Below are positions 6,042-41,431 of a stretch of DNA of 64,000 nucleotides, one piece after another. The stretch covers positions 4,227-68,226 of the forward strand of contig JBBSGK010000004.1 in NCBI GenBank assembly GCA_038254115.1, written 5' to 3'. Positions within the stretch are counted from its first letter, which is position 1. The number at the start of each line of letters is the position of its first letter. A program made the position numbers and the translations under genes. Source of the stretch: Candidatus Levyibacteriota bacterium (GTDB lineage: Bacteria; Patescibacteriota; Microgenomatia; Levybacterales; UBA12049). The notes under the pieces were generated by a model that worked only from the letters and a program-made list of their open reading frames with translations, was not told where the DNA came from and made no database searches.

Positions 6042-6929
6042 TTATGCAGAAAAATTGAGTTTGATTCCGGGGGACATTGTGGATTTGAGCGTGATGTTTT
6101 TGATATTTTTTGCCTGCACTGCTTGGATAACTGCCTCGACATTGTCAACCAATTTTTTCTCTTCAAATGAAATCTTGCCGATTGATAAGTGCATGATTGG
6201 GGCTTTTGCTTCTGTCTTGAAATTGATTTGTCCGAGCTCAAATTTCTTTGCTGCCTCTTTTGGTTTGGGATGGATGGTGCCGTTTTTGGGATTTGGCATA
6301 AGGCCCCGTGGCCCGAGAACTCTTGCAACTTTTGCAAGATGGCTCATGGTATCAGGCGTTGCGATAAGGATATCAAAATCCACTTGCCCCCCGGTAATTG
6401 CTTTTACAAGTTCTTCAACGTGTTTGGGATCCGCAGCGTGATCCGCAATCTCGATTTTTGCCTTTTTTCCTGATCCATGGGGGAGTGTGAGATTTCCTGA
6501 AATTCCCCGCTCCTGCGTATTGATGTGTAGCTCAACTGTTTCATCAAGTTTGGTTCTTTTTGTAGAATTTAAAATCTTCAAAGCATCTGTCACAGAATAC
6601 TTTTTATTTTTATCTACCTGCTTGGCCATTGCCAGATAACTTTCTGAGTGAGGCCTTGCTTTTTTGGAGGCTTTGTATTTTGATGTCTTGACAGTTTTGG
6701 CCGCTTTTTTTTCAGTCTTTGTTTCCTCAGCTTTTAATTCGGACTGTTCTTCTTTCTCTTCATTTACTGATTCTTTTATTGCTGAGTTTTCAACCTGCGT
6801 TGCTTTTTCGGCTTCGCCTTGTTTTTTGGCAGCTTCTATCCTTTTGGCTTCAGCTTTTTGCTTAGCTTTTTTCTTCTGATCTTTTTCGTCTTCTTCAATT
6901 CCAATTGTTTTAACTCTTATTTTACCCAC
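6042..6929 (-). CDS. rplA: 50S ribosomal protein L1 with an N-terminal Lys/Glu-rich extension of about 85 aa
   Basis: The L1 core begins around MAKQVDKNKKYSVTDALKILN... I place the start at the GTG at 6927-6929, which sits 4 nt after a GGGAGG Shine-Dalgarno sequence. The ORF-track start at 6965 is a TTG inside a heptamer repeat and I discount it. The ATG at MAKQVDK remains a possible alternative start. Confidence 0.85.
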   Translation of the reverse strand: MGKIRVKTIGIEEDEKDQKKKAKQKAEAKRIEAAKKQGEAEKATQVENSAIKESVNEEKEEQSELKAEETKTEKKAAKTVKTSKYKASKKARPHSESYLAMAKQVDKNKKYSVTDALKILNSTKRTKLDETVELHINTQERGISGNLTLPHGSGKKAKIEIADHAADPKHVEELVKAITGGQVDFDILIATPDTMSHLAKVARVLGPRGLMPNPKNGTIHPKPKEAAKKFELGQINFKTEAKAPIMHLSIGKISFEEKKLVDNVEAVIQAVQAKNIKNITLKSTMSPGIKLNFSA

Positions 6930-6952
6930 GTTTCCTCCCTTCGGTCGGTCAA

Positions 6953-6983
6953 GTGCAAAGTGCAAAGTGCAAAGTGCAAAGTG
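6953..6983. repeat. heptanucleotide tandem repeat (GTGCAAA) x4 plus a partial copy, in the rplK-rplA intergenic region
   Basis: Directly visible as gtgcaaagtgcaaagtgcaaagtgcaaagtg. Confidence 0.9.
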
Positions 6984-10977: not shown

Positions 10978-11628
10978 ATGCCCAGGAAGTATTTGTTGAT
11001 TTTATCAGGAACTATATTATTTTTCATCTTTATCCTTTTCTCATATCTGGTGCACAAGAATCATTTTACTGCAACAGACTTTAATACAACTGTACGTATC
11101 CAAGACCGGATGCCGAGAAGGTTTGATAATATTTTTTCAACATTCAGTGATATCGGAAAAGTTGAAGTGATGTCTATCATTTTGTTAATAGTTTTGATCA
11201 TCTCAAGAAAAATTATCCGAGGTTTGATTGCTGTTGGATTGTACGTCGGATTTCATCTGATTGAGATTTACGGGAAGTTTTTTGTTTCTCATCCGCCGCC
11301 GCCGCAATTTATGCTCAGGACCAAACATATTATTGATTTTCCCCAGTTTCATGTGCGACTTGAAAATTCTTATCCGTCGGGACATGCGGGGAGGACACTT
11401 TTCCTATCAACGATTTTGATAATATTAATATATAACAGCAAAAAATTTTCTAAGGCGCTAAAAATAGGCTTGATCGGTTTAATAGTTTGTTTTGATATCA
11501 CTATGCTGGTTTCGCGCGTGTATCTGGGAGAGCACTGGACATCTGACGTGATAGGAGGAGCGGTACTGGGAGCAGGTTTGGGATTGGTAAGCGGGGGAGC
11601 GCTTACAAAAGCTTGGTTAGAAAGATGA
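10978..11628 (+). CDS. PAP2-family phosphatase (phosphatidic acid / undecaprenyl-PP phosphatase-like)
   Basis: PAP2 motifs PSGH (SYPSGHAGRTLF) and SRxxxxxHxxxD (SRVYLGEHWTSDVIGG); polytopic membrane protein. Confidence 0.8.
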   Translation: MPRKYLLILSGTILFFIFILFSYLVHKNHFTATDFNTTVRIQDRMPRRFDNIFSTFSDIGKVEVMSIILLIVLIISRKIIRGLIAVGLYVGFHLIEIYGKFFVSHPPPPQFMLRTKHIIDFPQFHVRLENSYPSGHAGRTLFLSTILIILIYNSKKFSKALKIGLIGLIVCFDITMLVSRVYLGEHWTSDVIGGAVLGAGLGLVSGGALTKAWLER

Positions 11629-25998: not shown

Positions 25999-26757
25999 AT
26001 GAAAATTATTTATATCATTTTTGCCGCAGTAATTGTCTTACTTGTAGTTATTCTTCTAGTTGAAGTTTTGATGGTCATAAGTATCAAGCAGCCTACGTTT
26101 AAAAATCCTGACCGCGCAGCTCAAGTTTTGGGTACTACCGGTGAGAAGCTGACATATGTCGTGTTGGGAGACAGCACAGGAGCTGGCCGGGGAGCGGATT
26201 ATAAGAGGGGGGTAGCAATTCAAACAGCAAAGTATTTGGCAAAAAAAAGAAAGGTAAAATTTGTAAATTTATCTGTATCCGGCGGGACAACTAGAGATGT
26301 TCTGATCGAGCAAATTCCTCATGTGAGTGTATATAAACCGGATTTGGTTCTTTTGGCTGTTGGATCAAATGATGTTACGCATTTAACGCTTGGAAAATCA
26401 CTTGAGAAAGATCTGAACCTTATAATAGAAGATTTAATAAAAACCAATTGTAATGTAAAGATTGTTGTAACAGGGGCTGCGGAGATGGGTGCGATTCCAC
26501 TTTTTCCCCAGCCTTTGCAATATATTGCAGGATTGAGAACACAGCAGTTAAATAAAATTTTTGGTAGAGTGGCAGAAGAAAAAAATATAACCTTCGCGCA
26601 AATTGCCTATGAAACAGGACCGTTATTTAAAAAATATAAAAGTCTTTTCGCTTCAGATGGTTTTCATCCAAACGAAAGTGGTTACGCAACATGGCTTCCT
26701 GTTCTAAATAAATCAATAGATGGCGCCTTGCAAACTCAGCCAAGCCACTGTAATTAA
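25999..26757 (+). CDS. SGNH/GDSL-family hydrolase
   Basis: Block I VVLGDSTGAGRGA, block III GSNDV, block V DGFHPNESGYATW. It has an N-terminal TM anchor. Confidence 0.8.
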   Translation: MKIIYIIFAAVIVLLVVILLVEVLMVISIKQPTFKNPDRAAQVLGTTGEKLTYVVLGDSTGAGRGADYKRGVAIQTAKYLAKKRKVKFVNLSVSGGTTRDVLIEQIPHVSVYKPDLVLLAVGSNDVTHLTLGKSLEKDLNLIIEDLIKTNCNVKIVVTGAAEMGAIPLFPQPLQYIAGLRTQQLNKIFGRVAEEKNITFAQIAYETGPLFKKYKSLFASDGFHPNESGYATWLPVLNKSIDGALQTQPSHCN

Positions 26758-28026: not shown

Positions 28027-29211
28027 TTAATTTTTTGAAATCTTATATTGCGATAAAGAGAAGATGATGAATGCCAGGAAGGCCATCCCGCTTCCGAAGA
28101 GGAAAGTTGCAGATGGACTTATCATCGACCAGATTAGCCCCCCGGCAAATGATGCGATAAAAGTGCCGATTGCTGTGATTGTGTAGTAAGCTCCGAAATA
28201 AGTTCCTGACTCCGAACTTTCTATAAATTCTGAAATGTATGCTTTGGAAACACCATCTGTTGCCGCTATATATATTCCATAAATTGGGAATAAAATCCAT
28301 AAGAAGTTGGCTGTTTTGATCAAGCCGAAAAATAAATAAACTATGGCAAAAATTATAAGTCCTCCTGAGAAGACTTTTTTGGCGCCGATTTTATCAGACA
28401 ACTTTCCAAGCGGTGTTGCAAATACGGTTTGCGAGATATTGTATAGAACGTATGCAAGAACTACCAGAGTTGTTGTGAGTCCCAGATCTTTGGCCCGCAG
28501 GAGTAGGAATGCGTCTGAGCTATTACCTGCCGCAAAAAGAAAACTGACAACAAGGAAAAGCTTGAGCCTTGTATCAATCAGGCTCCATTTGAGATTTTTG
28601 AAGTGGAATTTACGCTCAGTTTTAGTCTTTTTAGTTTCTTTCACAAAGAAAAATAACAAAGCAACTGCTATTACGGCCGGGATAAAAGCGATGAAAAAAG
28701 TAAGGCGTATGTTTTCTTTTAGCAATGCTAGCAGTCCGAGTGCTAGCAATGGACCGATTACAGCGCCAAGACTATCAAATGCGCGGTGAAAGCCAAAAAT
28801 AAATCCTTTGTTGTGCTTTTGTGTATTATCAAGCAGCAGACTATCTCTTGCTGCAGTCCTCATTCCTTTTCCGAGCCTGTCAATGAAGCGGGCAAATAGG
28901 ACTAGAGGCCAGGTATAAGCGAGTCCTGTCAAGAGTTTGGAAATTGCTCCAAAAGAATACCCTCCGATAACAAAAGGTTTTCTTTTCTGCATATAGTCGG
29001 AGTAGGCTCCAAAGAGAAATTTGGTAATCGCAGCAGTTGCCTCAGCAGTTCCTTCAATTAGACCGATGACAGGTATTGGTGTATGTAAAACAGATGTCAG
29101 AAAGATCGGGACGATGGGGTAAATCATCTCAGAGGATAGATCATTGAAAAAACTCACAAGTCCTAAGAATAGAACCGGTCGGGGAATTTTTTTGAGGTTT
29201 GGAAAATTCAT
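28027..29211 (-). CDS. MFS transporter
   Basis: 394 aa, 12 TM-like segments, with an MFS-type loop motif (DRLGKGMRTAARDSLL). Confidence 0.85.
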   Translation of the reverse strand: MNFPNLKKIPRPVLFLGLVSFFNDLSSEMIYPIVPIFLTSVLHTPIPVIGLIEGTAEATAAITKFLFGAYSDYMQKRKPFVIGGYSFGAISKLLTGLAYTWPLVLFARFIDRLGKGMRTAARDSLLLDNTQKHNKGFIFGFHRAFDSLGAVIGPLLALGLLALLKENIRLTFFIAFIPAVIAVALLFFFVKETKKTKTERKFHFKNLKWSLIDTRLKLFLVVSFLFAAGNSSDAFLLLRAKDLGLTTTLVVLAYVLYNISQTVFATPLGKLSDKIGAKKVFSGGLIIFAIVYLFFGLIKTANFLWILFPIYGIYIAATDGVSKAYISEFIESSESGTYFGAYYTITAIGTFIASFAGGLIWSMISPSATFLFGSGMAFLAFIIFSLSQYKISKN

Positions 29212-29251: not shown

Positions 29252-30760
29252 CTATCCCAAACTTTTCCTGAGGATTGCAGCTTGAGTGATTAGGTCGGTA
29301 AGTGATCCGTCATCTGATTCCAATTTATCATAGATCTGATCTGTCAAGGTTTTGTGCTTGATTTCATCTTTTGTGACAGGTCCAAGTTTGATTCCAAGAG
29401 TTGTCTCAATTGCTCTTATGTCGTCCAATATTGGTTTCCAACCAGTGGACTTCTTACTCAATTTATTTAGATTATCAATGTTTAGATACCGTCCTGCCTG
29501 GTCCAGATCTTCTGAAATGTATTTGTAATATTTCTTGACGATATCAAGTTGTCCCATTTTTTTTGCGTTTTCCAGGCCGCGGCCTGTTCCTATCAGCTCA
29601 GGAGGAACGCCGATAGAATACAAAGCTGCGGTAAAACCGATCGCGCGTGGGAGTTTCACCTTTCCAACTCCACGCGAATATCCGAAAAGCCCGATGTGCT
29701 GGACCCGTTCACGCCGTCTTGGCAAAAATGCAGCTACCTTATTGATTAGTGGTGCAATTTTTTCAATTGTTTCGCGGTAGTTTTTCTCAAAACAAGGAAT
29801 CAAGCTTTGCAAAATATCTTCATCCTTTCCGGAAATTATCTCGGCCGTTTGCGTCGGAAGGGTGTCTTCAAGATATTTTATGGCTTTGATGACATCTTTT
29901 TTGTCAAAATCATACCTGAAAGCGCTTTGAATGGTAGTAGTGCGGATTCCTTTATATTCATCAGCAAATTTTTCAATGTTTGTCGGATCGATTCCCCCGC
30001 GGAAGGGAAGTACTGCTGCGCCGATTATCGGATAAAAAGGAATCCCAAGCTTTTCAGCTAATTTTCTGTATCTGGACAGGGCAATTTTAATTGCAAAGAC
30101 AGTCGGAACCATACCGAAATTAAGAGCAGGATCGGATCTAGCAACATAAGGGCGGATGTATGATGGTTTCTTCTTGAACTTATTTTCATAAAGACTTATG
30201 TATTTTTCAATTATTTTGTCAGAATTAATTATCGTTTCAACATCCTCAAATAGCGGGATAATCTTGGGATTGGTCAAAATATTTTCCAGACGGTACAGCG
30301 GATGAGTGAGCGAGTGGATCTGCTGATAGGCGACATGAATCTCAAAAATATCCTCAGCATTGGTGGTCATGGGAAGAATTACTTCAAATATCGGGGGAGT
30401 GGGGAGTCCAAAATGCTTGGCGACGCTTGCTGCGCTAGCTACGTTCATAAACGCGCGTCCTATTCTGAATTCTGTTTCGACTTTGGGATTGGGAAGTCTG
30501 AATGTCAAAAATGTTTCCTGCCCGAGAGGATTTTTTTGGAAAAATTCAAAATGCTCTCCAAACAATCTTTCAAGTACTGATTCATCAACCAATTTTCCTT
30601 CCCAGTCCCATTTGTATTCACGGATTCCAAGCTCTGAATATGCTAGAAATGTTTCGTGGGATTCAAAATTGGTCCTGATAAATTCACGGTCATGCCAAAA
30701 AGGCATGCTTGCGTGATCAGGGTGTTGAGTGGCCATAGTGGCTGAGATTTTTCTTTTCAT
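29252..30760 (-). CDS. archaeal-type phosphoenolpyruvate carboxylase (atPEPC)
   Basis: About 500 aa. The N-terminus ...TMATQHPDHASMPF...YKWDWEGKLVDE matches the conserved atPEPC start (TQHPD). Its size is typical of atPEPC, not the roughly 900-aa bacterial Ppc. Confidence 0.75.
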   Translation of the reverse strand: MKRKISATMATQHPDHASMPFWHDREFIRTNFESHETFLAYSELGIREYKWDWEGKLVDESVLERLFGEHFEFFQKNPLGQETFLTFRLPNPKVETEFRIGRAFMNVASAASVAKHFGLPTPPIFEVILPMTTNAEDIFEIHVAYQQIHSLTHPLYRLENILTNPKIIPLFEDVETIINSDKIIEKYISLYENKFKKKPSYIRPYVARSDPALNFGMVPTVFAIKIALSRYRKLAEKLGIPFYPIIGAAVLPFRGGIDPTNIEKFADEYKGIRTTTIQSAFRYDFDKKDVIKAIKYLEDTLPTQTAEIISGKDEDILQSLIPCFEKNYRETIEKIAPLINKVAAFLPRRRERVQHIGLFGYSRGVGKVKLPRAIGFTAALYSIGVPPELIGTGRGLENAKKMGQLDIVKKYYKYISEDLDQAGRYLNIDNLNKLSKKSTGWKPILDDIRAIETTLGIKLGPVTKDEIKHKTLTDQIYDKLESDDGSLTDLITQAAILRKSLG

Positions 30761-31155: not shown

Positions 31156-31809
31156 CTATATCTCTCTTCTTCCAGGACCTTCTATTCCTCTGAAAGCAAT
31201 TTCGGGGATCCTGCGTTCATTTTCGATTCCCAGTGTAATTGGATCGAGATCAAATACCATGGCTGATCCTGGTGGAATAGATTCTTCTATTTTTGGTTCT
31301 GGGTCCTCCGGATGTTTGAGTTTGTGCATAATTACACCAATTCCTTCTGAATGACCCATAATGCCAATCGTAAGTCCTTCATTTTTTTCATCCTGGACAA
31401 TTTCCGTAAAAGATTCCCAAATGCGTCGACTTAATTCTTCAGGTGATTCATCATCTTTATCATCTTGATTGGGTACATAAAATCCATTTTCTCCTATAGA
31501 TCCTTCAACCGGTTTTCCAACCCAACTAGGAGATGATATTGCCTGTAGACCTTTAAATGAAGTAAAGCGGGGACTTTTTTGCTCCAACATAGTTAGTAAA
31601 AGTGTGGCTGATGTTTCTGCTCTGGGAGTAGTGCTTGTGTATATAGCATCAAAAGGGGTACTCCTCAAAGAAGTTGCGAGGTTAGCTATTTCACCCTGCG
31701 CCTGAGGCGCAAGCTTTCCAGATGGACTATAAATAAGTTCCTGCCCTGACGCATTCCGTTCACGATTTACGCTGCCATGGCGCATGAGGACTACTCTTAC
31801 ATTCTTCAT
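31156..31809 (-). CDS. histidine phosphatase superfamily protein (phosphoglycerate-mutase-like)
   Basis: RHG motif (VVLMRHGSV) and a second catalytic His (IGIMGHSEG). Confidence 0.75.
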   Translation of the reverse strand: MKNVRVVLMRHGSVNRERNASGQELIYSPSGKLAPQAQGEIANLATSLRSTPFDAIYTSTTPRAETSATLLLTMLEQKSPRFTSFKGLQAISSPSWVGKPVEGSIGENGFYVPNQDDKDDESPEELSRRIWESFTEIVQDEKNEGLTIGIMGHSEGIGVIMHKLKHPEDPEPKIEESIPPGSAMVFDLDPITLGIENERRIPEIAFRGIEGPGRREI

Positions 31810-32110
31810 GATGGGTATTTTACTTTAAAATTGATGGAGATACAACTATGGGGTTTAGGCGAAAAATATTTCAGTGCCATTTGTCGAATTCTTCAAACAT
31901 CTTAAGCCTTTTCTCGGATCCGTCGTATTCTGAATTGATAAATGCAGTTACAATATTTTTAGATTTCAGGTATGAAGAAACAATTTGTATAGCATCAAAG
32001 CCCTGCAAGTCAGCGCCCAAATAAATCATGCTTGTAATATATCAAATTGTATTACCTTTTCCTTACATGTTTTATACCCGCTTCACACCCTGAGGCATTA
32101 TATTGTTGTA

Positions 32111-32413
32111 ATGAAGAAAAGTGAAAATGGAGTACTGGTTAAAAAGCAATCCAGCAATGGTCATCACAATTCAGTAACACCTGTTGTTGCCGGAATGGTG
32201 GGCGCAGCGGTCGGGGCAGGAGTCGGGATTGCCGGGGCAATCGCGATGAGAGATGAGAAAACAAAAGCTAAAATGATCGATGTGCTCCATACTGTATCGA
32301 AGAAAGCCAGTGAGTATATGGATAATATGAAAAAAGAAGCTACAATTCAACTGAAAGATAAAGCAGGGGAGGCAGTTCCGGAAATTAAAAAAATTGCAGC
32401 GGGTAACAGATAA
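32111..32413 (+). CDS. small Gly-rich membrane-associated protein (YtxH-like?)
   Basis: Start trimmed to MKKSENG... Hydrophobic Gly/Ala segment VVAGMVGAAVGAGVGIAGAIAM, then a charged helical tail. Confidence 0.4.
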   Translation: MKKSENGVLVKKQSSNGHHNSVTPVVAGMVGAAVGAGVGIAGAIAMRDEKTKAKMIDVLHTVSKKASEYMDNMKKEATIQLKDKAGEAVPEIKKIAAGNR

Positions 32414-32572
32414 TATGTCTATACTATTTTTTTCATCAATTAGTCTTATTGGATCGGTCATACTTGCTTATCTTTTGATACAACTTGGCCACGAACTATT
32501 GTAGGGATTTAAGAACCTCATTTACCTCATTGCATTTAAAACTTTTTATGTTAAATTAGATACAGTAAAATA

Positions 32573-33280
32573 ATGAAAAAAACCCACTCAACAACTGAAA
32601 AACAGGCAAGTCCATCCTTGGCAAAAATAATATTGGAATTTTTAGGCTTAGTCGTTTTATCGCTACTGCTAGGCTTGTTTCTGCAGAACAATAAAAATGC
32701 AATGCCGTTTGATAGATTTTTTTATGGACTGGCAGATAAAGTTCCTCATGGACCGTTTTTAGACAGCATAATGTCTGTCTTTGATTACAATTTCCTGCCT
32801 ATCAGCGCCCATCCCCAATTTTTTTTAATTATAATGTTGGTTGCAGTAATATATATAGGGTTAAAAAAACCTAAAGATTTTTGGTATATTGTATTAGCGC
32901 TTACAATCGGAGGTATTATAGCGAGGTTAATCATATTTATAGACACTACATTGGTTTATAGACAACGGCCTTGGCTTTTTCTTCCAAACCATGTCAGCAA
33001 TACTTTAAAGGAAGCTCTAAAAAGTTGGACCTCCTATCCCTCGGGGCACACGAGAGATACGCTTATGATTGGGTTGATTGTAAGTTATTTCATACCCAAA
33101 CTTAAATATTTTATGATTTTTCTTGCACTTCTTGTAGGATTTAGCCGGCTATATTATGGAGTTCATTTCCCGACAGACATTTTGTCAGGTTTAATTATCG
33201 GATATTTTGCTTACATAATAGTAATTAAATTAACAGAGTATATAAGAGGACGATTTTATCCTACTCATGGATCAAGATAG
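32573..33280 (+). CDS. PAP2-family phosphatase
   Basis: SYPSGHTRDTLMIG and SRLYYGVHFPTDILSGLIIG. It overlaps convergently with the next gene by 16 nt. Confidence 0.8.
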   Translation: MKKTHSTTEKQASPSLAKIILEFLGLVVLSLLLGLFLQNNKNAMPFDRFFYGLADKVPHGPFLDSIMSVFDYNFLPISAHPQFFLIIMLVAVIYIGLKKPKDFWYIVLALTIGGIIARLIIFIDTTLVYRQRPWLFLPNHVSNTLKEALKSWTSYPSGHTRDTLMIGLIVSYFIPKLKYFMIFLALLVGFSRLYYGVHFPTDILSGLIIGYFAYIIVIKLTEYIRGRFYPTHGSR

Positions 33281-34248
33281 GTGCGCTTCAAAAGAGCTGC
33301 GCTTTCAGGCTTGGGAAAACCTGTAATCACGTTAATTGCGCTTGGTACTATTTTAAATTCGACAGGAGTTTCTCCAAAAAGTCTTGCATCTGCATGCACC
33401 ATCTTTTCTACTTCGGATGTTATTTTAACTTTTTCAGCTTGATATGTTTTTATATCTTTGATTTTCTTGCCGGGGCGTTTAAATAAAAGCCTTAGAATAT
33501 GAAGAGTTAAGCCAAACATATTCATATTAAAAAGGGTCACAGTTAATTTATGATCATTGAGTTTGGCATCCGGAGCAAGCTCAAGCGCAAGCCCTCCTAG
33601 TGGCCCGTTGGATACAGTTACCATAGTTGCTTTTGTTTCGATTGCGCTATTGTCGAGATAAACCTGCGCTCTATGCCCATAATATGAAAAAAGAGCTTTA
33701 ATAATTCTAAAACCGCTTAGATATTCCTTCCTATCAAAAAATCCTGAAAAGTTATAATGCATTTCCGCGTCAATTCCAAGTCCTGCCTGTTCCAGAAAAT
33801 AATAAGGCTTTTCCATTTTTTCACCATTCAATTTTGTAATACTTCCCAAATCAATTTTTCTAACACGTTTTATTTTTATCAATTGTACAGCTTTTTCAAT
33901 TTCCAGTGGAATTGAGAGCATGCGGGAAACATTCATGACAGTTCCGAGCGGGAGTATAGCAACTGTTACATCTGTGCCCACAAGGCCGTTAATTACTTCA
34001 CCTACAGTTCCGTCACCTCCTGCTGCAATTATAAGATCATAGCCTTCTTTTACGCTGTTTCGCGCTAGAACTGTTGCATGTCTTGCATAACGTGTTGGGA
34101 AGTAGTCAACAGGGATCTGGTATTGCTTGAGCATATTCTTAATATCTTCAAGAGTCATTTTTGAATACAGAGGATTTTTATTGCGTTTTTCTCCTGAATG
34201 CGGATTGTAAATTAGTTTGGCTTTTTTGATTCCTTCGTTTTTTTTCAT
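33265..34248 (-). CDS. lipid kinase, DAGK_cat family (DgkB/YegS-like)
   Basis: LIIAAGGDGTVGEVINGL...VAILPLGTVMNVSRMLSIP is the diacylglycerol-kinase catalytic-domain signature. Confidence 0.85.
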   Translation of the reverse strand: MKKNEGIKKAKLIYNPHSGEKRNKNPLYSKMTLEDIKNMLKQYQIPVDYFPTRYARHATVLARNSVKEGYDLIIAAGGDGTVGEVINGLVGTDVTVAILPLGTVMNVSRMLSIPLEIEKAVQLIKIKRVRKIDLGSITKLNGEKMEKPYYFLEQAGLGIDAEMHYNFSGFFDRKEYLSGFRIIKALFSYYGHRAQVYLDNSAIETKATMVTVSNGPLGGLALELAPDAKLNDHKLTVTLFNMNMFGLTLHILRLLFKRPGKKIKDIKTYQAEKVKITSEVEKMVHADARLFGETPVEFKIVPSAINVITGFPKPESAALLKRTYLDP

Positions 34249-34249
34249 A

Positions 34250-35221
34250 TTATTTTTTCACGATAGGTTTTTTATTAAAAATCAGAGTTTTTGAATAGAA
34301 CAAAAGCAAAAATACAGCCCCGAAAAGTATATAAAAAACAAGAGTAATGAAGCGGAAAATCAAAATTGAGGCAAAAGCTTTTTCAAATGCGACGTTCATA
34401 AGAACGAAAACCCCTGCAATCCCACCTTCGGCAAGTCCTACGCCTCCCGGGACGATGCCTGAAATAGCCCCGATGATAATACTCATCGCGTAAATATATA
34501 TGCTTTGCGCAAAGGTTAGTGGCAGGGAATAGGCGCTAACAATAATATATATCATAAGACCTCCTACAACGTTTGAAAATAAACCTATGCCGATATTGAG
34601 CAGAAATGTACCACCCGGTTTGTGATCGCTTCCTTCATGAAGCATGTTTTTTCTGACTCCTTTCTGGGTTGCTTTAAGAGTCATAGCAGGTTTTTTAAGT
34701 TTTTTAACTTTTCCGATCTTACCGAACAATTTGAAAAGTATTTTTTTATTCCAAATCAAATAAATGGTGAGTAGCATTAGTACAAGCGCAATCAAAGCTA
34801 CATTTAATAGAATTCCGTAAACTAAGCTTCCTATAATCGCAATTATTGCCGAGGAGAAAAATACAATCAAAGCCTGCATTACGACTGGTCCTGATGTTTC
34901 TTTGGTATCAACTCCGGTTTCTTCTTTTAAGATTACGGTTCTGAAAGCTTCCCCGCCTGGGATTGATGAGGTAGCTTGTCCTGCAATATAGACTTTGCAT
35001 ATCTGCCAAAAACTTACTTTGATATCATTTTTCCGCAGAAGCAGGAAAAACCGCCATGATTTAAGTAAAGATATTAATGTTGCTAACAGGCATAAATAAA
35101 TAAGCCGTTCTTTTGGAAAACGACTGATTTCTTTAGACAAAACATTTAGATTAACAGCATGGCTCAATGCAAATAGTACGAGAACACCAATGATGATGAA
35201 AATTATAAAACGGTATTTCAT
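34250..35221 (-). CDS. flippase-like membrane protein (UPF0104 / lysyl-PG-synthase TM-domain-like)
   Basis: 323 aa, about eight TM segments, with the central motif ...YIAGQATSSIPGGEAFRTV. Confidence 0.65.
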   Translation of the reverse strand: MKYRFIIFIIIGVLVLFALSHAVNLNVLSKEISRFPKERLIYLCLLATLISLLKSWRFFLLLRKNDIKVSFWQICKVYIAGQATSSIPGGEAFRTVILKEETGVDTKETSGPVVMQALIVFFSSAIIAIIGSLVYGILLNVALIALVLMLLTIYLIWNKKILFKLFGKIGKVKKLKKPAMTLKATQKGVRKNMLHEGSDHKPGGTFLLNIGIGLFSNVVGGLMIYIIVSAYSLPLTFAQSIYIYAMSIIIGAISGIVPGGVGLAEGGIAGVFVLMNVAFEKAFASILIFRFITLVFYILFGAVFLLLFYSKTLIFNKKPIVKK

Positions 35222-35222
35222 A

Positions 35223-35987
35223 TTATGAAGGTTTTACTTTGGGCTGCCATTTGTTGAATAGGAATATTACAATTGAAAGCCAGATAAAACCAACCAGATA
35301 TGCTCCCATTACATCTGAAAACCAGTGGGCTCCCAAATAAATTCTGGATGTACCGATTAGCGAAACTAAAAATGTTAATATCACAAGAAGAATTATGCGG
35401 AATTTATTGCTTGCAGGTAAAGTAAAGGTAAGATAGAGTAAAAATCCAAAAAATCCAACAAAAAACAATACATGACCTGAAGGAAAGCTATCAGGCTTAA
35501 GATAGCGTGCCACCTGGTGTATGAGCTTGGGATTTGGTCTTAACCTGTGAACAAAATGCTTCATAGTGACTGAAATAATTGTTGCTCCGGCTGTTGAAAA
35601 AATAACCATCATACCTTCTTTTTTACGTTTCTTCAGGAATAAGATTCCGGATGTAATAAGCAGCAGGACAGGGCTTATTCCGGGATTTCCAAGCCATGTT
35701 AAAAAATTCATAAGCATGTCAAACCATGAAGCATTGAACTCCTGCACCTCCTGGGTAATTGTTAAGTCTATTGCAAAATACGGTTTTTGTTTGGCAAAAA
35801 AAGTAAGAACTGCAACCGCACCCATAACAGATGCAAGGATAATATATGATGCAATTCTCCGTGCGTTATAGACGCGTTGGGAAACGACCGGTATGTTATC
35901 AACAGGTTTTGTTACTTTTTTAAGTGATTCAACTTTTTCTTCGATTGCTTTTTTTACAACCGGTAATTTTTTCTTTGGTTTTGCCAT
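35223..35987 (-). CDS. PAP2-family phosphatase
   Basis: SFPSGHVLFFVGF and SRIYLGAHWFSDVMGAYLVG. Confidence 0.8.
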   Translation of the reverse strand: MAKPKKKLPVVKKAIEEKVESLKKVTKPVDNIPVVSQRVYNARRIASYIILASVMGAVAVLTFFAKQKPYFAIDLTITQEVQEFNASWFDMLMNFLTWLGNPGISPVLLLITSGILFLKKRKKEGMMVIFSTAGATIISVTMKHFVHRLRPNPKLIHQVARYLKPDSFPSGHVLFFVGFFGFLLYLTFTLPASNKFRIILLVILTFLVSLIGTSRIYLGAHWFSDVMGAYLVGFIWLSIVIFLFNKWQPKVKPS

Positions 35988-36005
35988 ATAATTTATACGA
36001 TTCTG

Positions 36006-36926
36006 CTATTTTACCATAATCGTCAAGGATTTGGGAAAAATTTCGACTTTCAATTTTTCGACCGGATCGAAAAGGTCACCATCGCATTGAAAAGCTTTTT
36101 TACCTCTTAATGAAACTACGGAAATCTCTTTGCCTGAAAGCAATTTATAGTGCGGGCTTTTGTTGATATTTCCTCTTAAAATATTGATTGCTAAATCAAT
36201 CCAGTGCAGAATTCCTGATGCCTGCATAATACCGATTCTGAGTATTCCATTATCAGCTCTCGCTCCCGGAACTGCTTCAATACCTGATTCAATGCGTCCC
36301 ATGTTTGCGATCATGACACTTTTTGCTTTATAAGTTTTAGGTGGTTTTTTATCAATTGAAACTTTATAATATCCTGATGGGGAGCCAAGGCTTTTAAATC
36401 CTCCTATTATATATGCGAAAAATCCGAGTTTGTTTTTTACTTTACGGTCAGTGTTCTGCATCAATTCTGCGTCAAGTCCTATTCCTGCGATGATTGAGAA
36501 AAATATTCCGTTTGCGCGCCCGATATCTATTTTCTGAGGCTTACCCAATAGTGCAACAGGAATTGCTTTTTTATAATCTGTTGGAATTTTAAGATTCTTG
36601 GCAAACAAATTTCCGGTACCTAGGGGGACTACTCCGATAACGGCCTTTTGTTTGCTTACAGCCTGCAGAATCTCCATTATTGTTCCGTCACCGCCGCAAG
36701 CAATTATATGTCTAGTGCCATTTGCTAGCGCTTTTTTTGCGATAGTGCCGCCATTTATTTTGCGCGACGTTTCATATGCTTTTCCATGCCATCCAAGTTC
36801 TTTTGCAATCTCTAAGATTTTATCTTTCCTTTTCTGACCATCCCCAACCCCGCTTACGGGATTGATGATAAATACAGCATTTTTTGGGCCGTTTTTAGTA
36901 TTAATTTTTATTTTTGTATCAGTCAT
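36006..36926 (-). CDS. lipid kinase, DAGK_cat family (DgkB/YegS-like), second copy
   Basis: IIACGGDGTIMEILQAV...IGVVPLGTGNLFAKNLKIP. Confidence 0.85.
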   Translation of the reverse strand: MTDTKIKINTKNGPKNAVFIINPVSGVGDGQKRKDKILEIAKELGWHGKAYETSRKINGGTIAKKALANGTRHIIACGGDGTIMEILQAVSKQKAVIGVVPLGTGNLFAKNLKIPTDYKKAIPVALLGKPQKIDIGRANGIFFSIIAGIGLDAELMQNTDRKVKNKLGFFAYIIGGFKSLGSPSGYYKVSIDKKPPKTYKAKSVMIANMGRIESGIEAVPGARADNGILRIGIMQASGILHWIDLAINILRGNINKSPHYKLLSGKEISVVSLRGKKAFQCDGDLFDPVEKLKVEIFPKSLTIMVK

Positions 36927-37001
36927 AATTTAAGCAGAATGATACATTGTATCATTTAAATTGCAATTAATGTGTGAGATTATCGATTTGATGCAAATAA
37001 T

Positions 37002-38075: not shown

Positions 38076-38915
38076 TTACATTAAACGTGTTTGGGTTTCC
38101 TCTTGGACACGTTTTGAATCAGTTATAAGAACACCCATTAACAGGTCAACCTGATCAGGAGTTAGTTTATTATCTTGTCCCCATTCGTAACGGTCATCTC
38201 TCATTGCCAATTCACGACCCTGGTCTAATATGCCGATTCCAAGAGCATGCTTTACTTTGGCAATTTCCGATGCCAACCTTCTTCTTTCTACTACAGCATC
38301 TATTATCGTAGAGTCTATTTGGGTATTATCCTCGGGTTTTATTTTTACAGCAGAGGTGACATCTGCAAATACAGCATCGAAATTTCTTAATCCTGCTTGA
38401 GTCAGGATAACTTGATCAACCCTATCTAATCCATTTCTATAATCGCTCAAGCGTTGCAGGGAAGAATCGTTACCCCCCTCAATTGGTATTTTGGTGATTG
38501 CTGGATGATGGCGGACAAATACTGCCCAGTTTTCAAACATGTCCCGTGCTGTGTTTAAGCTTTCACTATCAACTTGTCGATTATTCAAAACATGATTTAC
38601 TGTAGTTTGTACTTTTTTGGAGACTTGTGTTATATAATCATTTGGTGGCATTTCTGTAGGTTTGGCGTCCCAATCGACGATGTTACCCAGGGTAACTTCA
38701 TGATGAAACCTCTCCATTGGATTCGTAGGTATTTCCAGCAACATAATGCCTTGTTCCAATGCGCCTCTGTCGCGTCTATCATCGTAGCCATTACTTGCGC
38801 GCAAGCGTCTTCTACTGCTAAAGACGGTAATTGCATCGCTTACTCTATATAAGTCAAGGAAGGATGCTGCGCGGGGCGCATCAGGTTTTGTCGGTTTTTC
38901 AAGTGTTCCCCACAT
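38076..38915 (-). CDS. hypothetical protein (Arg-rich; inserted between the GNAT fragment and the intact GNAT gene)
   Basis: 279-aa ORF with no family recognised. Confidence 0.55.
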   Translation of the reverse strand: MWGTLEKPTKPDAPRAASFLDLYRVSDAITVFSSRRRLRASNGYDDRRDRGALEQGIMLLEIPTNPMERFHHEVTLGNIVDWDAKPTEMPPNDYITQVSKKVQTTVNHVLNNRQVDSESLNTARDMFENWAVFVRHHPAITKIPIEGGNDSSLQRLSDYRNGLDRVDQVILTQAGLRNFDAVFADVTSAVKIKPEDNTQIDSTIIDAVVERRRLASEIAKVKHALGIGILDQGRELAMRDDRYEWGQDNKLTPDQVDLLMGVLITDSKRVQEETQTRLM

Positions 38916-40291: not shown

Positions 40292-41431
40292 ATGGCTGAA
40301 AGGATAAGAAAGGGAATGGAAAGGGTAAGGGGTTCGGAAGAATCACCCAAAAAAGAAAAGCCAACAGGAATTGGAACAGGTATTTACCGGCCAAGAAAAT
40401 TACTAACTACTTTTGAGCTTGGAAGACGAAGGATAATTCTTCCACATAGAGGCGAAGAACAACGAGATGATCGAAGGATGCCTAGGATACTTACAGCTGC
40501 TGATATAGAACGAAAAATTGGCGTTGAACAAAGACGCATAGCTGGTACAACTGAAACAGTCGCGTATATGGGTTACAAAGCTGGGGAGGAGGCGCTTGGG
40601 GAAGACCATAAGGTAGATCTGATCATAACATCTACGACTCACCCCACTTCTGAACATGTTTCGAAAGAGATCGCTAAATCGCTAAAGTTGCCGGAAGATA
40701 CCCCGGCAATTGATGTCCATGCGGCATGCTCGGGATCAGCGCTGGCTTTTGCTTATTTACATGAACATAGAGAGGAAATGCTAGGAAAGAGGATACTTGT
40801 TGTAGCATCTGAAAAAATTACTGATACTCTTGTTGATCTGAGGAATGGGGGAGCGGAACTTGATCCTTCGCTCGGACAAACCATTTTTAGTGACGGCGCT
40901 GCAGCAATCGCTTTTACTTTTGGAAAGGACATTAAAACCCATTTTGCGGGCAATGAATCTCTTCCTGATGCAAGAGGAAGAACAGATTTGATAAAAATGT
41001 CTGTTGGAGACAGCTCTTTTGTGGAGCCTTGCATTACTTATCCTGTTGCTCCTTCACCCAGTACTCCTGAATATCCAAAAGGTTTCTTCACACAGGAAGG
41101 CGGGGCGGTTTATGAAGGAGTTCAATCCGCTATACCCGACATAATACGAGATGCAGTAAAGGCATCCACGTGTAGGCCTGAAGAAATAGATCTTGTAGTC
41201 GCGCATTCCGGAAGTAAAAAAATGGTAGAGGCATTAAAGAGAAGATTAGGTGAGTATAAATTGCATGCATTATACAAAGAAGGTAACGTGTCTTCAGTAT
41301 CTATGCTTTATGCTTTGATAGATGCAATAGACGAAGGATTAATTGGGAAGGGAAGTAAAGTGGTCTTATCAGGATTTGGGGCCGGAAGTCCTGATCTTTT
41401 TTCCTCAACTGTTGTAGCAGAGCTTGGGTAA
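40292..41431 (+). CDS. 3-oxoacyl-ACP synthase III (FabH / KAS III)-like condensing enzyme
   Basis: Active-site Cys context VHAACSGSALAF, His/Asn region VVAHSGSKKM, C-terminal GFGAGS. It has a basic N-terminal extension, and the start could be one of the internal Met codons. Confidence 0.75.
   Translation: MAERIRKGMERVRGSEESPKKEKPTGIGTGIYRPRKLLTTFELGRRRIILPHRGEEQRDDRRMPRILTAADIERKIGVEQRRIAGTTETVAYMGYKAGEEALGEDHKVDLIITSTTHPTSEHVSKEIAKSLKLPEDTPAIDVHAACSGSALAFAYLHEHREEMLGKRILVVASEKITDTLVDLRNGGAELDPSLGQTIFSDGAAAIAFTFGKDIKTHFAGNESLPDARGRTDLIKMSVGDSSFVEPCITYPVAPSPSTPEYPKGFFTQEGGAVYEGVQSAIPDIIRDAVKASTCRPEEIDLVVAHSGSKKMVEALKRRLGEYKLHALYKEGNVSSVSMLYALIDAIDEGLIGKGSKVVLSGFGAGSPDLFSSTVVAELG

Follow-up and report, generated by a model that had tools for sequence, protein, structure and literature searches.

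A conserved gene module of a lipid kinase, PAP2 phosphatases and a flippase-like protein in Patescibacteria, a candidate trans-bilayer lipid-phosphate cycle

In a 64,000-nucleotide stretch of the genome of a Candidatus Levyibacteriota bacterium (contig JBBSGK010000004.1; hereafter the window, with a G+C content of ~40%; all positions given below are window positions unless a locus is named), we identified a compact locus that encodes soluble lipid kinases of the DAGK_cat family, PAP2 lipid phosphatases and a flippase-like membrane protein. Judged by its conservation in related loci, the real unit within this locus consists of four genes, which we refer to as PAP2-b, FLIP, DAGK-2 and PAP2-c. 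We favour, tentatively and at somewhat less than an even chance, the reading that these genes specify a complete cycle of lipid phosphates across the bilayer, most likely one acting on glycerolipids (diacylglycerol, DAG; phosphatidic acid, PA; phosphatidylglycerophosphate, PGP).

Gene content and conservation of the module

The minus strand carries a run of four genes. DAGK-1 (36006-36926), the first in the run, encodes a soluble lipid kinase of 306 aa with DAGK_cat and YegS_C domains; PAP2-b (35223-35987), a PAP2 lipid phosphatase of 254 aa with six transmembrane (TM) segments and canonical motifs; FLIP (34250-35221), a stand-alone flippase- or scramblase-like membrane protein of 323 aa belonging to the MprF-TM/PplT (UPF0104) type; and DAGK-2 (33265-34248), a soluble lipid kinase of 327 aa with the DgkB fold. 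On the plus strand, PAP2-c (32573-33280) encodes a six-TM PAP2 enzyme of 235 aa without the lysine of motif C1. A first-pass annotation of the window, made from the sequence alone, had located these open reading frames (ORFs) and named their domains correctly, as the ORF listing and the Pfam and NCBIfam matches confirm. It had described the minus-strand genes as overlapping or separated by 2 nt, but the actual gaps are 18, 1 and 1 nt. It had also described a third PAP2 gene as converging on the run. The convergence is real, and the 3' ends of DAGK-2 and PAP2-c share 16 nt (33265-33280), the sole overlap in the locus. The numbering is not, since a hidden Markov model (HMM) scan of all ORFs showed that the 64-kb window holds exactly three PAP2 genes, rather than four, along with two genes of the DAGK_cat family and one of PF03706; PAP2-c is therefore the second PAP2 gene, and the supposed fourth, at 10978, is the third.

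A key question is whether these genes form a functional unit or simply stand side by side. The survey of related loci is a sample rather than a census; the loci were scored by tblastn and with module HMMs over all fetched loci, and the groups described here are loci of the DAGK-2 clade with usable flanks. A search of genome contigs with the DAGK-2 alignment returned mostly distant kinases among the matches listed, a metagenome search with the C-terminal half yielded 20 loci, and a profile search of genome contigs with the FLIP alignment gave no match; starting from FLIP itself and from its homologues led to contigs with the same arrangement. All four genes are present in eight loci (the window, L002, L003, L004, L005/L105, L086, L094 and L107). 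One further locus (L109) carries FLIP, PAP2-c and DAGK-2, and three others (L006, L091 and L097) carry PAP2-c, DAGK-2 and PAP2-b without FLIP. DAGK-2 is the most conserved member of the core, PAP2-c is its most constant neighbour, PAP2-b also belongs to the core, and FLIP does so in most loci.

The four genes occur in two orders. In the first, which is that of the window, PAP2-b, FLIP and DAGK-2 are accompanied by a convergent PAP2-c, and the 3' overlap of DAGK-2 and PAP2-c (15 or 16 nt, depending on the ORF calls) is kept in every locus of the convergent arrangement (L003, L004, L085, L086 and L107). In the second, FLIP, PAP2-c, DAGK-2 and PAP2-b follow one another on a single strand, with overlapping gene boundaries in some loci; in L005, L094 and L109, PAP2-c is co-oriented with the kinase and lies between FLIP and DAGK-2. 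The set is carried by independent contigs whose DAGK-2 orthologues are 45-84% identical and whose flanking genes vary from locus to locus, and the linkage outlasts rearrangement at 45-52% identity of DAGK-2 and 32-40% identity of FLIP. Because the gene set recurs, unlike its flanks, and does so in two gene orders, the clustering goes beyond chance, and a linkage that survives rearrangement at such divergence argues for a functional unit.

The comparative synteny that the first-pass annotation had proposed as a check thus bears out a recurring core of four genes and leaves DAGK-1 as an accessory. Orthologues of DAGK-1 adjoin the module only in the closest relatives (L001, L003 and L086); in L107, the DAGK-1 orthologue (49% identity) lies 8 kb from the module and is fused to a HAD-IA hydrolase. 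Such a C-terminal HAD-IA (phosphoglycolate-phosphatase-like) hydrolase was seen in three DAGK-1 orthologues (L107:94-1659, P0254 and P0256), in which kinase and phosphatase are thereby joined in one soluble protein. An apparent FLIP-DAGK-2 fusion (P0014, L087:1-480) was set aside: it arises from one missing A in an A-run, a second frameshift lies upstream and the contig is 1.35 kb long, so that the probable explanation is faulty assembly or else a pseudogene.

Near the module in two distant relatives there are also genes with DUF4430 and DUF6580 domains (L105/L106, 1060-5826; L109, 4035-6498). L109 additionally encodes a prenyltransferase/squalene-cyclase-like protein, and L105/L106 encode GT2 and PMT_2 (GT-C) glycosyltransferases, enzyme groups that use polyprenyl-phosphate-linked sugars.

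Predicted properties of the encoded proteins

The two PAP2 proteins of the module share 27% identity and fall into two separate orthologous groups. PAP2-b (Pfam PAP2, 6e-20) has the motifs KHFVHRLRP, PSGH and SRIYLGAHWFSD, so that KX6RP, PSGH and SRX5HX3D (motifs C1 to C3) are all intact; the canonical lysine is found in 13 of its 14 orthologues, and 12 of the 14 have three intact motifs. PAP2-c matches the same Pfam family at 2.8e-18 (66.4 bits against a cutoff of 27.2), with weak PAP2_3 and PAP2_C matches under the family cutoffs, and its motifs are TTLVYRQRP, PSGH and SRLYYGVHFPTD. The C1 lysine is missing from all PAP2-c orthologues (15/15), its position being occupied by T, S, N, Q or W; RP, PSGH and the histidine and aspartate of C3 (RX5HX3D) are likewise found in 15/15, and the C3 serine in 10/15. 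We therefore regard PAP2-c as an enzyme of the PAP2 fold whose C1 motif is atypical.

The closest solved structure is B. subtilis PgpB/YodM (5jki, E 2.3e-14) for PAP2-b and Aquifex LpxE (6ebu, E 9.8e-9) for PAP2-c; LpxE itself has the C1 lysine. Both proteins share the six-TM layout, with the C1-C3 motifs on the outer face, of PgpB/YodM, BcrC/YbjG, LpxE and LpxT, the substrates of which are PGP, undecaprenyl pyrophosphate (undecaprenyl-PP, C55-PP), PA or lipid A 1-phosphate. Unlike in these known enzymes, the C1 lysine that LpxE keeps is absent from the PAP2-c orthologues, and two PAP2 subtypes are co-conserved with a kinase. The NCBIfam equivalog cutoffs for the undecaprenyl-diphosphatases SepP and YbjG and for PgpB (250, 229 and 261 bits) are far from being reached: the best scores were obtained with SepP (49.7 bits for PAP2-c and 42.4 bits for PAP2-b), and the YbjG and PgpB models gave 22-33 bits. 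With TM boundaries set by hand, the lysine and arginine residues on the non-motif versus the motif side number 23 versus 9 in PAP2-b and 13 versus 9 in PAP2-c. Since the short loops rich in these residues sit opposite the loops with motifs C1-C3, the active sites of both proteins are predicted to face outward. Outward-facing active sites are also characteristic of PgpB-type enzymes. The third PAP2 gene of the window (10978-11628, plus strand), which is unlinked to the module, has KX6PP in place of KX6RP, that is, proline instead of the C1 arginine, with PSGH and SRX5HX3D intact.

Both kinases exceed the Pfam gathering scores for DAGK_cat and YegS_C (23.6 and 27 bits) and belong to the YegS/Rv2252/BmrU family of soluble lipid kinases: DAGK-1 scores 99.4 bits (1.5e-28) and 43.8 bits (2.8e-11), and DAGK-2 scores 102.7 bits (1.4e-29) and 54.7 bits (1.3e-14), respectively. 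On the family model TIGR00147 (cutoff 118.65 bits), the scores are 124.4 bits for DAGK-2 and 108.2 bits for DAGK-1; DAGK-1 has its best NCBIfam matches, each under cutoff, with PRK00861 (161 bits) and with the C-terminal, kinase half of PRK12361 (136 bits). The GGDGT nucleotide loop is at residue 78 of DAGK-1 and at residue 77 of DAGK-2. DAGK-1 retains the CDGD and ADNG motifs. In DAGK-2, D287 and D232 align with D271 and D216 of DgkB, which we take, after the paper on the DgkB structure, to be the catalytic and the Mg-site aspartate, and both residues are invariant in 44 clade sequences. Hydrophobic or membrane segments are absent from both kinases, which are therefore presumably cytoplasmic, and we propose that DAGK-2 is an ATP-dependent lipid kinase acting at the inner face of the membrane.

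Another important question is whether these kinases are DgkB orthologues or members of a different lineage. Both of them match YegS in the PDB less well than they match S. aureus DgkB (2qv7) or a DAGK_cat protein of Enterococcus. The AlphaFold2 (AF2) model of DAGK-2 (pLDDT 87.6) finds DgkB (2qvl/2qv7) as its top Foldseek match at ~1e-25, followed by BmrU-like proteins, YegS and sphingosine kinase 1 (SphK1); AGK shares the fold. The equivalog models were not reached: the kinases score 116-128 bits on the DgkB models (cutoffs of 385 for PRK13337 and 342 for PRK13055) and 58-100 bits on those of YegS (387 for TIGR03702 and 284 for PRK13054). In a neighbour-joining (NJ) tree, which is rough and carries no bootstrap or other support values, the DAGK-2 clade is monophyletic and its sister group comprises kinases of Ktedonobacteria, Chloroflexales and one cyanobacterium, also with PAP2 neighbours; DAGK-1 forms a separate clade, and both paralogues lie outside the group of S. 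aureus DgkB and the Bacillales kinases and are distant from E. coli YegS. The term DgkB-like, as used in the first-pass annotation, thus appears to hold at the level of fold, family and chemistry and not for orthology, and neither paralogue groups with either of the two clades, DgkB and YegS, between which that annotation had expected a phylogeny to decide.

With 25% identity between them, DAGK-1 and DAGK-2 are, on their sequences, old paralogues, of which DAGK-1 is accessory and only DAGK-2 belongs to the conserved core. DAGK-2 has a conserved C-terminal tail (TGFP...KRTYLDP) that is found in the DAGK-2 clade only. This clade comprises more than 120 clusters that are at least 46% identical over the full length, and its members include a Levybacteria metagenome-assembled genome (MAG), a contig with a name ('Hain-H41-01um') that suggests a 0.1-um filter fraction of Hainich groundwater, and two genomes that bear the label 'uncultured Gammaproteobacteria'.

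FLIP matches PF03706 (LPG_synthase_TM) at 2.5e-30 (106.4 bits against a cutoff of 33.4) over residues 9-301 of 323 and TIGR00374 ('flippase-like domain') at 70.8 bits (cutoff 43.2). Its AF2 model (pLDDT 77, pTM 0.78) gave six Foldseek matches in the PDB with E <= 1e-3 (1e-5 to 7e-4), all of them MprF, with TMq values of 0.57-0.64; the next match had E > 0.1. Unlike MprF, FLIP has no C-terminal aminoacyl-phosphatidylglycerol (PG) synthase domain and ends after the TM domain (34.6 bits on NF033480, cutoff 600), and it does not reach the GpgF equivalog either (46 bits against 320). The domain has been termed 'PplT' and is common as a stand-alone protein. E. coli YbhN is encoded together with clsB (clsB-ybhN), and the stand-alone PF03706 members GpgF of P. 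aeruginosa and HexF of C. difficile are encoded in the glycolipid/PG-modification operons gpgSDF and hexSDF, where a flippase role has been proposed. FLIP shares the family and the predicted fold with these proteins, and all of them stand beside lipid head-group enzymes; FLIP, in contrast, has PAP2 enzymes and a lipid kinase as its partners, which the PplT survey does not mention as a combination, and these papers on PplT, GpgF/HexF and the MprF TM domain name neither PAP2 nor DAGK partners. The TM domain of P. aeruginosa MprF is an energy-independent, promiscuous scramblase, with the attached enzyme proposed to confer specificity (PMC11980842). By analogy, FLIP is most likely a passive scramblase.

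Is the association of PAP2 enzymes with a kinase peculiar to this lineage, or does it occur more broadly? A search with DAGK-1 over 1.8 billion representative proteins returned many matches of 500-600 aa with a C-terminal kinase. When ten long matches were tested for domains, seven proved to be single PAP2-DAGK_cat-YegS_C polypeptides and one was a DAGK-HAD fusion. Two proteins, P0286 (824 aa) and P0405 (820 aa; MBT8215379.1, from an Acidimicrobiia MAG), have two PAP2 domains ahead of the kinase, the first with KX6RP and the second, adjacent to the kinase, without the lysine; by its motifs, this pairing mirrors PAP2-b, PAP2-c and DAGK-2, minus the scramblase. Several fusions with a single PAP2 domain are also lysine-less, including WP_179814214.1 of Allostreptomyces, which is encoded on a 5.4-Mb contig. 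As separate genes, a PAP2-c-like gene, a kinase gene and a PAP2-b-like gene follow one another in a Chloroflexales MAG, a kinase gene is followed by a PAP2-b-like gene in Ktedonobacteria, and a kinase gene is accompanied by a convergent lysine-less PAP2 gene in cyanobacteria.

The fusions (PRK12361, named 'hypothetical protein'; WP_179814214.1; MBT8215379.1) therefore have the same domain set as the module and, in the two-PAP2 forms, the same pairing. Unlike the fusions, the window has its parts as separate genes together with a scramblase-like gene, and the DAGK-2 clade differs from the fusion kinases, which were found with DAGK-1. Literature and database searches yielded no function for PAP2-DAGK_cat fusions. 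Since PAP2-kinase coupling occurs in Ktedonobacteria, Chloroflexales, cyanobacteria, the Acidimicrobiia MAG and Allostreptomyces, it is, as far as these sequences tell, widespread and not peculiar to lipid scavengers; the fit to a lipid-scavenging lifestyle that had been suggested for the locus in the first-pass annotation is accordingly not specific. Its retention in the reduced genomes of the candidate phyla radiation (CPR), along with the high conservation of DAGK-2, suggests that the coupling is important there.

A lipid-phosphate cycle and its alternatives

What, then, could such a module do? A lipid cycle that links a kinase and a phosphatase to translocation, as the first-pass annotation had already proposed in outline, fits the predicted topology, the conserved linkage and the natural PAP2-kinase fusions. 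In its general form, a lipid phosphate of the outer leaflet would be hydrolysed, and the resulting lipid alcohol would be re-phosphorylated at the inner leaflet. In the glycerolipid version, phosphatidate-type lipids of the outer leaflet would be dephosphorylated to DAG, DAG would return to the inner leaflet, and DAGK-2 would convert it to PA, feeding head-group synthesis that depends on CDP-DAG. FLIP would shuttle the charged lipids PA and PGP across the leaflets, its effective cargo and direction being set by the neighbouring enzymes, and the outward-facing PAP2-b could convert PGP to PG outside and so finish PG synthesis. In CPR bacteria, which have no known de novo route to PA, the module would then serve as the point of entry and recycling for DAG backbones. 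The observations beneath this scheme are the genes present and their conservation, the state of the motifs, the folds, the fusions and the topology as predicted; the substrate, the direction of flux and the scramblase activity in it are what we infer.

We favour the glycerolipid version because DAGK_cat kinases are known to act on glycerolipids and sphingolipids, because PF03706 proteins have been tied to glycerophospholipids and because CPR bacteria lack known de novo PA routes yet keep the downstream enzymes. Further support comes from the kinases and PAP2-b, whose catalytic residues are intact. A comparable logic operates in Firmicutes, where DgkB recycles to PA the DAG released by LtaS: the soluble DAGK_cat/YegS_C fold is the same, both aspartates are conserved in DAGK-2, and here too an extracytoplasmic lipid reaction would pair with intracellular ATP-dependent re-phosphorylation. 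Unlike DgkB, DAGK-1 and DAGK-2 lie outside the Bacillales clade and under the equivalog cutoffs, DAGK-2 has its clade-specific tail, and an LtaS-like gene was not seen in the window, where no sulfatase/LtaS domain was found among the scanned ORFs. To our knowledge, a linkage of dgkB with a pair of PAP2 genes and one for a PF03706 protein is not known. Eukaryotes have related cycles, in which LPP ecto-phosphatases together with SphK, DGK or AGK, or dolichyl-PP phosphatase together with dolichol kinase, dephosphorylate lipids on the exoplasmic or lumenal face and re-phosphorylate them on the cytoplasmic face; these differ in that the genes are unlinked, dolichol kinase is CTP-dependent and belongs to another family, and the schemes contain no dedicated scramblase. 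Among 675 CPR genomes, no complete lipid pathway was found, which leaves open where these bacteria obtain their lipids (PMC7242380). CdsA, PgsA and Cls are retained in Saccharibacteria, which could convert membrane lipids into one another 'if provided' with PA (PMC6031116).

Several points weigh against the glycerolipid cycle. In three loci that extend for several kb to either side of it (L090, L096 and L100), DAGK-2 has neither PAP2 nor FLIP genes nearby, and these were also not seen in two loci with a one-sided flank (L099 and L101). Among the scanned window ORFs, cdsA, pgsA, pls and fab genes were not seen, save for one KAS-III-like ORF. By sequence score, none of the equivalog cutoffs (DgkB, YegS, PgpB, YbjG, SepP and GpgF) was reached. 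The orientation of the PAP2 proteins is a manual positive-inside reading combined with homology rather than the output of a dedicated predictor. DAG flips spontaneously, so a DAG/PA cycle has no obvious need for a scramblase, and a cycle with the kinase inside and the phosphatase outside acting on one lipid would be futile without an external supply or acceptor. Finally, PAP2-kinase coupling is found in bacteria whose taxonomy and genome size lead one to expect full lipid biosynthesis, and it is then not a scavenging adaptation as such.

A serious alternative, to which we give rather less weight, is that a polyprenyl carrier is recycled via its free alcohol. PAP2-b would convert undecaprenyl-PP outside to undecaprenyl-P (C55-P), PAP2-c would convert this to undecaprenol, and the alcohol would cross the bilayer and be re-phosphorylated by DAGK-2; FLIP would provide protein-assisted flipping of undecaprenyl-P. 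The whole would be a bacterial counterpart of the dolichol cycle that has been proposed for eukaryotes. Two sequential dephosphorylations would explain the co-conservation of two PAP2 subtypes better than the glycerolipid version does, and the lysine-less PAP2 would always be a neighbour or fusion partner of the kinase because its product would be the substrate of the kinase. Such a cycle would also explain the presence of the coupling in wall-making bacteria with full lipid synthesis. The top NCBIfam matches of all three window PAP2 proteins are undecaprenyl-diphosphatases (SepP and YbjG), but these lie far under cutoff and the PAP2 matches hold at the family level only. MreB, MreC and PBP2 are encoded in the window, and the organism therefore uses a lipid II cycle.

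Can the known enzymes of carrier-lipid metabolism be reconciled with this alternative? Monoderm bacteria hold free undecaprenol of unknown source, and a C55-P phosphatase activity has been detected but never assigned to a protein; the known undecaprenol kinases, on the other hand, are membrane enzymes of the DgkA type (PMC5723303). The experimental links of PF03706 proteins have so far been to glycerolipids, and the known C55-P flippases are DedA and DUF368 proteins. A further point against a polyprenyl substrate concerns the kinase, since we know of no member of the DAGK_cat family that acts on polyprenols.

A broader formulation, interesting but in our estimate rather doubtful, is that a unit of canonical PAP2, lysine-less PAP2 and DAGK_cat is widespread, that it recycles a lipid phosphate or pyrophosphate via the free alcohol, and that the module represents it in unfused form with a scramblase added. 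This unit would span Patescibacteria, Chloroflexota, Cyanobacteria and Actinobacteria, and its most interesting version would run from undecaprenyl-PP through undecaprenyl-P and undecaprenol back to undecaprenyl-P.

By analogy with MprF, GpgSDF and HexSDF, the locus might instead serve an outward phosphoryl relay or surface-lipid modification, which we consider unlikely. The kinase would make a more highly charged lipid (PGP from PG, or diacylglycerol pyrophosphate, DGPP, from PA), FLIP would expose it on the outer leaflet, and PAP2-c, as an LpxT-like phosphotransferase or a trimming enzyme, would set the composition of the outer leaflet or phosphorylate an envelope acceptor where ATP is unavailable. 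PF03706 proteins, stand-alone or fused, do occur in known operons in which their proposed role is the export of the product of a cytoplasmic lipid-modifying enzyme, and YegS reportedly phosphorylates PG in vitro; kinase activity on PG or towards DGPP is itself suggested here by analogy. The phosphate-binding lysine is lost in all PAP2-c orthologues, and the weak matches of PAP2-c are to PAP2_3 and PAP2_C, families that include phosphotransferase-type members, but these matches lie under the cutoffs, and the retained RP, PSGH and SRX5HX3D of PAP2-c mean that plain hydrolysis is still likely. LpxT, a PAP2 enzyme, uses C55-PP as the donor when it phosphorylates lipid A in the periplasm (PMC2229476); no conserved acceptor-related gene stands beside the module.

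That unrelated housekeeping envelope genes (for a DAG kinase, a scramblase of general function and a phosphatase acting on UPP or PGP) have come together by chance without forming a functional unit is very improbable: each family does have ordinary housekeeping roles on its own, short gaps alone mean little in gene-dense CPR genomes, and DAGK-2 orthologues are solitary in L090, L096 and L100, but the linkage persists down to 45% identity of DAGK-2 and 32% of FLIP through reordering and complete replacement of the flanks, and other phyla fuse the same parts with the same pairing of a canonical and a lysine-less PAP2.

Genomic surroundings and significance of the module

Upstream of the minus-strand run, a divergent intergenic region of 75 nt (36927-37001) separates DAGK-1 from a gene for an HhH-GPD glycosylase-like protein, and we presume that it holds the promoter of the run. 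It contains a single sigma-70-like match (36966-36939, minus strand); promoter and terminator matches at the locus did not exceed the expectation from shuffled sequence and add no support to the operon call.

On the other side lies a histidine phosphatase gene (31156-31809, minus strand; His_Phos_1, 2.4e-11, RHG motif present), which had no tblastn match in any of the related loci. This gene, the PAP2 gene at 10978 and a KAS-III-like gene had been listed as associated features in the first-pass annotation; together with a GDSL lipase gene, they were rejected as members of the module because they are not conserved in the related loci. The KAS-III-like protein (40292-41431, plus strand) has KAS-III domains, an arginine-rich N-terminal extension of ~70 aa and, apparently, the Cys, His, Asn triad; it scores 115 bits on the FabH models (cutoff 249), and neither an ACP gene nor a further fab gene is nearby. 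The GDSL/SGNH lipase (25999-26757, plus strand), also unlinked to the module, weakly matches TesA/lysophospholipase L1 and may bear on lipid scavenging.

The remaining ORFs of the window include those for NusG, L11, L1, L10, a sigma-70 protein, GuaA, DprA, TopA and two subtilases, as well as MreB, MreC, PBP2 and an archaeal-type phosphoenolpyruvate carboxylase, and many have no family match. Among named sequences, TopA is closest to proteins of MAGs labelled Saccharimonadales, 'Patescibacteria group' and Levyibacteriota, alongside a few with implausible labels such as Xanthomonadales and Limnocylindrales, and on this basis the window falls within Patescibacteria; related sequences lie on contigs of 0.6-1.6 Mb. 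The carboxylase gene (29252-30760, minus strand; 510 bits on TIGR02751) adjoins a gene for an MFS transporter (28027-29211). A protein of 963 aa with a bacterial Ig-like domain (Big_3_5) is encoded at 2427-5318 on the minus strand, between the ORFs at 1712-2260 and 6042-6965; the genes on its two sides are those of ribosomal proteins L1 and L10. The L1 ORF as listed has a TTG start and ~130 extra N-terminal residues, so that its start may be mis-set. The 279-aa product of 38076-38915 (minus strand) is annotated with a chorismate mutase CM_2 domain, although it is far above the typical CM_2 length.

Every component of the module belongs to a known family, and nothing in it is categorically new. 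As far as searched, the novelty lies in the conserved four-gene combination in Patescibacteria, in the two fixed PAP2 subtypes, one of them lysine-less, in the distinct DAGK-2 clade with its tail and in the parallel with the two-PAP2-kinase fusions, found in the Acidimicrobiia MAG. Literature searches on CPR bacteria with diacylglycerol kinase or PAP2 and on PAP2-DAGK fusions yielded no account of the module, an absence that is not proof of novelty. The main text of the CPR lipid survey never mentions a kinase, and a kinase-based route into PA was therefore not considered there (PMC7242380).

The conserved module of kinase, PAP2 and scramblase-like genes offers concrete, expressible genes for lipid salvage or recycling in CPR bacteria, and it may bear on how these organisms handle lipids that they cannot make. 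It is also a natural context in which to ask what stand-alone PplT/MprF-TM proteins do. That a lysine-less PAP2 is paired with DAGK_cat in several phyla suggests a cycle of envelope lipids that is as yet uncharacterised and extends beyond the CPR. If the substrate were a polyprenyl lipid, the module would fill two gaps in the carrier-lipid cycle of monoderm bacteria, namely, where undecaprenol comes from and which protein is the C55-P phosphatase; in that case, DAGK-2 would represent a new family of polyprenol kinases, and the PplT protein would be a carrier-lipid flippase.

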